IMG/VR virus record: IMGVR_UViG_2671180357_000001
Coordinates: 1 to 30,616 of that record
Reading direction: 5' to 3' (one strand)
Origin: a virus
Lineage: Duplodnaviria; Heunggongvirae; Uroviricota; Caudoviricetes
Length of the DNA: 30,616 nt
A model generated the notes under the pieces. The model ran no database searches and had not been told where the DNA came from. It worked only from the letters and a program-made list of their open reading frames with translations. The number at the start of each line of letters is the position of its first letter. The stretch's first letter is position 1. Shown piece after piece: positions 15,138 through 15,490 of the stretch. The position numbers and the translations under genes were made by a program.

Positions 15138-15490
15138 TGTTGGCTCCGTTTATCCGTTAAAAGGGATATCAGTTAAGTTATCCCGTGTAGGGTATAAGCC
15201 ATTGTCGAGACCACTCATTGAATGGTCTCTGCAATAACCGATGTCTTTCCATCAGTCCGCCACCACAAAGAATCTTTTTTGCCATAAGGCAGGAGGTTCA
15301 TCTTTCAGTGGCTGCCAGTGTTATTTCCCCACTTACTGGCTTGGGTTGCTTCGCGGTACTGCCGTTAACTGGTGGCGCACAGATTTAGTTAAATCTGTTC
15401 TCGCCTGAACTATCTTTTACATACCCGGATTGTGGGGATGTAAATCACGGTTTCATTATCAAGCCCACCCGTAGATGGGCTTTGGAATGG

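Follow-up and report, generated by a model that had tools for sequence, protein, structure and literature searches.

Several described systems come close to the elements reported here. Clark, Inwood, Cloutier and Dhillon, describing the HK620 genome in 2001, reportedly listed seven lambdoid boundary sequences, bsq1-7, and proposed them as recombination foci. The RNase III sites of phages T7 and T3, such as R1.1, are repeated intercistronic hairpins, a 3' hairpin being left on the upstream message. REP/BIME elements are structured palindromes lying just 3' of stop codons and stabilise upstream mRNA; according to Liang, Rudd and Deutscher in 2015, a REP within some 15 nt of a stop codon is said to reduce translation of the upstream gene. 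The attC sites of integrons fold on the bottom strand. Finally, lambda sib / tI is a hairpin 3' of a gene, with an extended form in antiterminated read-through, at which RNase III decides the fate of the upstream message.

The locus described here is a 353-bp gap, the spacer, in a 30,616-nt stretch of tailed-phage DNA, the whole of which is called the window below. It contains two copies of a hairpin motif, H, and one double palindrome, E, and we class H/E as an intercistronic structured RNA and module-boundary element. Like the bsq elements, H and E are short, conserved lambdoid sequences at junctions of modules with unrelated flanks: the genes upstream are unrelated to one another, as are the packaging modules downstream. 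The annotations of the HK620 and Sf6 stretches fetched place no bsq in this gap; bsq7 is marked within Rz in Sf6, upstream of it. H is a covarying, strand-specific hairpin that abuts stop codons; neither the hairpin structure nor the abutment is known to have been claimed for any bsq.

Geometry likens H to the T7/T3 RNase III sites, which share with it an upper stem of ~10 bp, an internal loop and a lower stem in polycistronic phage mRNA, and H is predicted to form a helix of roughly two turns with the internal loop that such sites often have. The H loop is a symmetric 2x2 loop (CA/GA), H flanks accessory cassettes only, and no sequence similarity between the two is known. With REP/BIME elements H shares the form of a structured palindrome shortly after a stop codon. 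However, it is confined to the lysis-packaging junction rather than dispersed (there are two in the window), it is unrelated to them in sequence, and it has no linked RAYT-type gene. Like attC, H is an imperfect hairpin with conserved ends and a variable, structure-conserving middle, and it lies right after the stop codon of each promoterless cassette in arrays of changing order. In contrast to attC, the coding strand of H is the one that pairs, the arrays hold only 1-3 cassettes and no crossover point can be identified; no integron integrase was noticed in passing beside the arrays in the window or the loci. As for lambda sib / tI, the likeness is an analogy only, concerning the int region rather than a late operon and involving no sequence relation.

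Nothing describing H or E was found in the searchable literature, where P22G alone turned up. This is one of ten phage loci found by small-RNA sequencing of P22-infected Salmonella (Naaz et al. 2026, PMC13397905). It corresponds to AF217253 21,873-22,076, plus strand, 204 nt, and has no known function according to its authors (PMC13397905). The ten loci together account for 99.8% of phage-specific small-RNA reads, and P22G was found both in the cytosol and in outer-membrane vesicles; it was defined by read alignments, the RT-PCR validation having covered two other loci (PMC13397905). P22G is homologous, on the same strand, to a central part of the spacer (block C) and the left arm of the second H copy, and the paper makes no mention of H or E (PMC13397905).

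A conserved, non-coding spacer on the late strand

The features of the locus are collected in Table 1. As stated in an earlier description made from the DNA letters (the sequence-only reading), rha and packaging genes flank the spacer. All the genes around it are on the minus strand, and the sense strand of the spacer is therefore the minus strand.

Table 1. Features at and around the spacer, listed in the direction of late transcription.
Feature	Position in window	Strand	Remarks
Holin	17105-17548	minus	
Endolysin	16672-17193	minus	
Rz	16208-16675	minus	
rha	15491-16045	minus	Phage_pRha + ORF11CD3
353-bp gap (spacer)	15138-15490		between rha and DUF2560 gene
H1 (family F2)	15454-15489	minus	inverted repeat; covariance model 28.9 bits, E = 0.0018
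Block B	15375-15453	minus	lineage-restricted, non-coding
Block C	15240-15374	minus	conserved non-coding; homologue of P22G body
Gene-insertion site	15239/15240		3' edge of block C
H2 (family F3)	15200-15236	minus	inverted repeat; covariance model 57.9 bits, E = 8e-11
E	15150-15197	minus	two 20-nt imperfect palindromes, 28 nt apart
E unit 1	15178-15197	minus	TTATACCCTACACGGGATAA
E unit 2	15150-15169	minus	ATATCCCTTTTAACGGATAA
orf80/DUF2560 start signals	Shine-Dalgarno GGAG 15144-15147; ATG 15135-15137	minus	right after E
DUF2560 gene (P22 orf80 / HK620 hkbM)	14895-15137	minus	
TerS	14327-14815	minus	gp3-type
TerL	12853-14349	minus	

The spacer matches 206 phage records at 92-98% identity, its relatives including HK620, Sf6, HK97, HK022, P22, CUS-3, Stx2 phages and mEp phages. 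An identical 353-bp gap, likewise unannotated, lies between hkbL and hkbM in HK620. Part of the spacer is present in 2552 of 5426 complete E. coli genomes; in the E. coli rows listed, either no feature is annotated or an annotated flanking or inserted gene just overlaps it. The spacer is unannotated in nearly all the records listed, some of which place hypothetical proteins there. An element found in about half of complete E. coli genomes is absent from Rfam and unannotated in RefSeq. The sequence-only reading had recommended alignment with related phages, bearing in mind that the region might be missing from close relatives or might reveal a protein-coding frame; it is present in relatives and conserved, and no conserved coding frame emerges among those compared.

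Nucleotide diversity was measured over 34 distinct haplotypes. Block C has a value of 0.027, H2 one of 0.022 and E one of 0.009, the E value being biased low because part of E served as search pattern. For comparison, the adjacent orf80 has a diversity of 0.116 at third codon positions and 0.019 at second positions. Low diversity in the spacer could partly reflect recent recombinational spread instead of purifying selection.

Only short ORFs occur in the spacer and none is conserved, in agreement with the earlier view that it contains no convincing ORF. On the plus strand there is one of 55-56 aa and on the minus strand there are ORFs of 35 and 28 aa; a 22-aa homologue of P22 orf25 has its ATG at 15216-15218, in the H2 loop. 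One or more of these four might be supposed to encode a small protein, orf25 being annotated in P22 and hypothetical proteins being annotated at this place in some other records. However, the orf25 ATG is missing in two of the H sequence families described below (F1 and F2, with ACAGAG and ACGGGT instead), ATA replaces the ATG of the 28-aa ORF in HK022, a 1-nt A-run indel, polymorphic among relatives, breaks all three longer ORFs, and insertion of a gene of the Sf6 gene 66 family splits the spacer ORFs. No convincing Shine-Dalgarno sequence precedes any spacer ORF. With starts and frames not conserved and no 3-nt periodicity among the variable sites, the small ORFs on both strands were rejected, and we find a protein product here barely credible. 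The spacer is a conserved, non-coding element of the late strand.

It is also rich in inverted repeats. The perfect 9-bp repeat ACAGATTTA-GT-TAAATCTGT noticed earlier is indeed present (15379-15387 / 15390-15398), as are the GAGACCA...TGGTCTC hairpin (15207-15229, extending to 17-nt arms at 15201-15217 / 15219-15235) and the AGCCCA...TGGGCT hairpin (15461-15481, extending to 14-nt arms at 15454-15467 / 15476-15489). Though all three are real, they do not form a set of equivalents, since two of them are copies of one motif. A perfect stem of at least 9 bp arose in 26 of 2000 shuffles of the spacer, and five perfect stems of at least 7 bp in just 1 of 2000 (shuffle mean 0.21). The fold of the sense (minus) strand has an energy of -122.3 kcal/mol, compared with -88.4 +/- 5.9 kcal/mol for shuffles (z = -5.8); on the antisense strand z is -3.9.

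Rfam release 15, searched with the whole window at gathering thresholds, yielded zero families. At E <= 10 over 14850-15750 its matches were at chance level only, the best being Proteo-phage-1 with 16.8 bits against a threshold of 42, and none of its families overlapped H or E when 13 related loci were examined. The Rfam search that had been suggested as a check returned no family match; H covaries in an alignment of its own, as follows. ARAGORN found no tRNA or tmRNA in the window.

Hairpin H at the 3' ends of accessory cassettes

The AGCCCA and GAGACCA hairpins are two copies, H1 and H2, of a single motif of ~37 nt. It consists of a lower stem YAUUR/YAAUR of 5-6 bp, a conserved 2x2 internal loop (5'-CA / GA-3'), a covarying upper stem of 7-10 bp and an apical loop of 3-8 nt. 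In H2 these are the lower stem TATTG/CAATG, the internal loop CA/GA, the upper stem GAGACCATTC/GAGTGGTCTC and the loop AAU; the upper stem of H1 is AAGCCCA(TC)/(GG)TGGGCTT. Both upper stems make stable, G+C-rich stem-loops. The overall geometry (5-6 bp, 2x2 loop, 10 bp) leaves the internal loop 10-11 bp from the apical loop. Applied to the 30.6-kb window, a covariance model of H finds exactly these two copies and none elsewhere.

A structural scan for H gave 155 instances, 27 of them distinct, in 1.25 Mb of loci, as against 3 in shuffles, and every one of the 155 lies at this one locus. Sequence-anchored extraction brought in further families whose upper stems are entirely different yet complementary, and five sequence families (F1-F5) keep the pairing. 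When the 27 distinct variants were aligned, 98.3% of the cells were paired on the sense strand and 89.4% on the antisense strand, while slid controls of the structure paired at only 35-51%. Changes on both sides are seen in 9 of the 15 pairs, and the covariation score of 0.36 (0.21 in shuffles) was reached by none of 500 shuffles. The non-Watson-Crick cells comprise 43 G.U and 7 A.C. At the same sites the covariance model scores 52-62 bits on the sense strand and 18-26 bits on the antisense strand, a gap of ~30-38 bits. The G.U pairs of H fit only the late-mRNA strand, and H is under selection for base-pairing on that strand. The search patterns fixed part of many H variants and therefore limited the variation visible in family F2, as they did in the core of E.

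H1 comes directly after the TGA stop codon of rha (15491-15493). In 100 of 172 distinct contexts, the stop codon of an ORF of at least 50 codons is found within 15 nt upstream of H, and in 54 of those 100 it abuts the hairpin. Most of the remaining contexts listed have H after block C or after a canonical terminator. H sits at the 3' ends of accessory cassettes, with unrelated genes upstream. Read-through of the stop codon into H was considered and rejected, all three stop codons being used and the extensions not being conserved.

The lysis-packaging junction is where lambdoid phages carry variable accessory genes, and those found at it include rha, KilA-N genes, the N4 gp49/Sf6 gene 66 family, an Acb2/Tad1-like anti-defence protein and a gene annotated as anti-CRISPR. 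Phages have 1-3 copies of H, always on the late strand. Genes for DUF2560, the Acb2/Tad1-like protein and DUF6979 lie between copies, a gene of the gene 66 family is likewise flanked by H, and the slot upstream of H1 is filled differently from phage to phage, by rha, by KilA-N plus hkbL or by the anti-CRISPR-annotated gene. The DUF2560 gene follows E in the window and is located between two H copies before E in locus L135, from which it follows that cassette order varies. Some phages have E bracketed by two H copies.

A position at gene 3' ends would also suit intrinsic terminators left by morons, which would halt read-through from accessory-gene promoters in the lysogenic state and be passed by a Q-modified polymerase during the lytic cycle. 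The final bases of families F1 and F2 are GGCUU(U), after which comes GAUAAU, and one F1 copy is annotated as 'terminator' in phage Ayreon. Against this, H2 and families F3-F5 generally lack any U-tract; the 3' flanks of H2 (GACAAUGG) and H1 (GAUAAUGA) have no U run right after the stem; and the sequence 3' of the upper stem is itself paired within the conserved lower stem. Several H copies, moreover, occur right after a canonical terminator (GCGGGGCTTTTTATTG-CCATTAC), where a second would be redundant. A terminator scan called neither H1 nor H2 and gave no terminator at the 3' end, and we regard termination as a very improbable role for H.

Mosaic blocks and the P22G homologue

The window was compared with 125 loci from phage records and IMG/VR. 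Similarity to relatives breaks at recurrent points, and these define H1, block B, block C, the insertion site, H2 and E. Which subset of blocks is present differs from phage to phage, and many phages have one hairpin and E alone. The spacer is a mosaic assembled from conserved cassette-like sub-blocks.

Blocks B and C are restricted to phages of E. coli, Shigella and Salmonella. Block B occurs in only 22 of the loci fetched, those of HK620/Sf6 type, and is absent from HK022, P22 and CUS-3. Its contents are a hairpin with 11-nt arms (15416-15426 / 15434-15444) and the perfect 9-bp palindrome, which spans 15379-15398. The few substitutions in this palindrome give G.U pairs on the sense strand, and its GGCG/CGCC extension is broken by variation; situated in a lineage-restricted block, it appears weakly supported by comparison.

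In block C, most of the predicted stems are broken by the variation observed and were rejected. Since variation fails to support them, much of the spacer is without demonstrated structure. P22, CUS-3 and POCJ13 have a different rha allele, which ends ten bases into block C. The equivalent region of P22 carries obvious debris in the form of a terS fragment.

The 3' edge of block C is occupied in Sf6, IME10 and many prophages by an inserted member of the N4 gp49/Sf6 gene 66 family, and the window therefore represents an empty cassette slot. A role of block C as a toxin-antitoxin operator was rejected, the inserted 'Gp49 family' gene belonging to the N4 gp49/Sf6 gene 66 family and not being HigB. 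The earlier proposal that the spacer is the remnant of a lost moron holds for this empty slot, but not for the non-coding blocks around it, which are themselves conserved. A stronger form of that proposal would make the entire spacer neutral debris, the decaying remains of deleted cassettes, conserved through recent recombination only. The absence from the window of the gene that other phages have at this site, the terS fragment of P22 and the unsupported structure predictions for block C are consistent with it. However, diversity is 4-5x below that of adjacent synonymous sites over the 34 distinct haplotypes, whose flanks are varied; H and E are also found in Enterobacter, Kluyvera, Leclercia, Pantoea and other genera amid sequence that is otherwise unrelated; and H covaries. 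Neutral debris is accordingly an improbable description of the spacer.

The P22G sequence opens with the final 58 nt of P22 rha, continues through all of block C and ends in the left arm of H2 (...UUAUUGCAGAGGCCAU). In window terms it covers the homologue of 15374-~15222 on the late strand, its start lying in the P22-type rha that is absent from the window. The 3' end falls in the H upper stem and not in the internal loop. The P22G reads show that the region yields abundant, relatively stable sense-strand RNA in a relative; they do not make it an independent gene. H and the spacer supply, in turn, a structural and evolutionary context for P22G.

The sequence-only reading had offered a small RNA, a regulatory or processing site and the remnant of a lost moron as possibilities and is partly supported. 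The small RNA was borne out in one respect, the central block matching P22G (PMC13397905); what that block lacks is a promoter or terminator of its own. Were block C, with or without block B, to be an independent gene, it would encode a P22G-like trans-acting regulator of host or phage targets. Such a gene would agree with the place of P22G among the ten loci that dominate the P22 small-RNA reads and with its presence in cytosol and vesicles (PMC13397905), as well as with the high conservation of block C as a non-coding sequence. Yet a promoter scan of both strands of 14500-16300 gave no sigma-70-like site, with 2.5 expected in shuffles, and there is no intrinsic terminator, H2 being without a U-tract. 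With its start inside rha and its late-operon direction, P22G may simply be a stable decay or processing fragment. No block C stem is backed by covariation, complementarity of the spacer to the rest of the window, including at long range, is at chance level, and block C is confined to phages of E. coli, Shigella and Salmonella. We consider a separate sRNA gene decidedly unlikely.

Element E and the proposed roles of H and E

The most widely shared part of the spacer, a double palindrome just upstream of orf80, had escaped the earlier description. From divergent relatives, the consensus of the E family is (T/A)TATCCCC-N4-G(G/C)GGATAA. The arms are conserved in sequence, and departures from it are mismatches rather than compensations, with no G.U bias. 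RNA hairpins were rejected as an account of E: there is no covariation, mismatches are tolerated and the units are omitted by RNAalifold. The pattern TTATCC-N8-GGATAA, at 11 or more of 12 positions, gave 274 matches in 1.8 Mb and 2 in shuffles. All 274 are at this locus, beside an H-type flank or within E, and a dispersed operator was rejected for that reason. E is more likely a candidate sequence-specific protein-binding site than an RNA structure, with binding more probably on DNA. It does not appear to be a good fit to the sites of DnaA, Fur, NarL, IHF or CsrA, to the lambda operator or to REP.

Downstream of E there are at least six unrelated packaging systems. They comprise P22 gp3, the TerS of HK620/CUS-3, the 268-aa TerS of Stx phages, a lambda-type Nu1 (in locus L025, E lies roughly 250-290 nt before cosN), HNH plus TerS both of HK97/HK022 type and of Stx2-1717, and at least one further type.

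The joints of the mosaic fall repeatedly at the borders of H and E. Taken by themselves, these breakpoints and the unrelated sequences on both flanks, including the packaging systems just listed, would suit a DNA-level linker, H and E serving as short homology for Red-, Erf- or RecT-type recombination and having no function as RNA or in protein binding. Among lambdoid phages the concept is an established one, in the form of boundary sequences, one of which, bsq7, is the annotated example in Sf6 Rz. Homology needs no hairpin, however, yet H pairs through compensation in five families and with strand-specific G.U; hybrid, mismatched hairpins were not seen; and conservation extends to the internal loop and to the position right beside stop codons. 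Recombination as the only function of H and E thus seems to us unlikely.

With somewhat less than even confidence, and tentatively, we instead favour a combined role, in which H would punctuate the late mRNA through processing and 3'-end protection and would double, with E, as a recombination linker. The spacer would belong to the Q-antiterminated late operon as a transcribed stretch that codes for no protein. Each accessory cassette would end, on its 3' side, in H, folded as a stable helix of ~15-17 bp with its conserved 2x2 internal loop, a likely target for an endonuclease of RNase III type and/or a barrier to 3' exonucleases. Abutting the stop codon as it does, H may also, in the manner described for REP elements, damp translation of the gene upstream. 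The stability and expression of the accessory genes would in this way be uncoupled from those of the packaging genes, and stable fragments such as P22G would be left behind. H and E are conserved while their surroundings vary and may therefore act as short homology patches, at which accessory cassettes and whole packaging modules would be swapped. Processing and stabilisation, translational damping and the linker role are all what we infer from the comparisons above.

A structured RNA element at cassette ends offers a testable handle on how accessory genes are insulated from essential late genes, and H/E, on the linker or boundary-sequence hypothesis, a further one on where and how mosaic modules swap. 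A covariance model of H would improve prophage annotation and help to locate accessory and anti-defence cassettes. The prevalence of the element and its link to such cassettes raise its interest, its function being a proposed one.

A more far-reaching idea, which we consider highly improbable, is that H is the recognition hairpin of a dedicated lambdoid cassette system, either as an attC-like strand-specific recombination site or as a repeat-like RNA processing signal. In the RNA version, each cassette, including the non-coding block C (P22G) and E, would be excised from the late transcript. If this were true, the lysis-packaging junction would be an organised, exchangeable accessory and anti-defence array and not a random hotspot.

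Lambda and the K-12 prophages DLP12 and Qin are without H and E, and therefore no lambda or K-12 data, including RNase III maps, apply to these elements. A scan for family F2 with a 17-mer gave 76 matches, of which 56 without the rest of the motif were dropped as chance and 20 were true; the family occurs in species representatives of Enterobacter, Kluyvera, Leclercia, Pseudocitrobacter, Buttiauxella, Franconibacter, Pseudescherichia and Pantoea.

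Gene content around the H hairpin

Slots flanked by H, the hairpin of about 37 nt found at the ends of accessory cassettes, hold a gene for an Acb2/Tad1-hairpin-domain protein in one compared locus (L135, 228-584; Pfam E = 1.5e-16) and a gene annotated as anti-CRISPR in phage Louie (L269, 821-1291). Because genes of both these kinds occupy H-flanked slots, the lysis-packaging junction may be a hotspot of anti-defence genes. Several related phages have, some 2 kb upstream of H, a match to the Rfam family STnc100 (RF02076) above the gathering threshold; none was obtained with Rfam for this family within the window.

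Features located in the window and in related phage loci
Feature	Location	Strand	Remark
Chi-like octamer ACTGGTGG	window 15368-15375	+	7/8 match to Chi (GCTGGTGG)
Terminator-like hairpin GAGCCTCGCGATGCGGGGCTT, then TTTATATCTG	window 16157-16177	-	between Rz and rha
STnc100 (RF02076)	L146 941-1137		Rfam
STnc100 (RF02076)	L148 2609-2812		Rfam
STnc100 (RF02076)	L151 1765-1968		Rfam
STnc100 (RF02076)	L154 4449-4650		Rfam

Joints and remnants of exchange

The Chi-like octamer is placed exactly on the boundary between spacer blocks B and C, the same place at which several mosaic breakpoints cluster; its conservation does not extend to every variant. In HK022 (L003), 3' of E, the double-palindrome element preceding the packaging genes, the first 80 or so bases of the DUF2560 gene orf80 are retained (2296-2378, ATGGCAGAGATTATTCTCATGACTGAAGAACAG...), after which the sequence changes to the region of the next annotated gene (start 2393). 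This switch is a recombination joint within orf80. Upstream of orf80 in P22 (L004), at about 2120-2200, is a fragment reading ALTDKQEMFCHEYLIDLNATQAAI, which is the N-terminus of a small terminase of the HK620/CUS-3 type and is therefore left over from another packaging module.

Among the loci where GGTATTCAAGCCTGACACATCATGCGC comes next after E (e.g. L008, L025 and L051), phages of the lambda-Nu1 and Stx types possess an additional conserved non-coding stretch 3' of E, extending toward cos or the terminase genes.

Transcription-related features in P22

Between the small ORF orf25 and orf80, P22 (L004, AF217253) also contains, in the stretch 1780-2090, an ORF of about 83 amino acids (MSDIEQKIAHLEDII...) that runs antisense to the late operon and lacks annotation in the three P22 records inspected. 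A canonical intrinsic terminator (AAGCCGCTAAGTAAGCGGCTTTTTT) comes after it. This ORF has the appearance of a classic antisense moron. The Rz-rha interval of P22, corresponding to that which bears the terminator-like hairpin in the window, is reported to yield another small RNA, P22F (PMC13397905).
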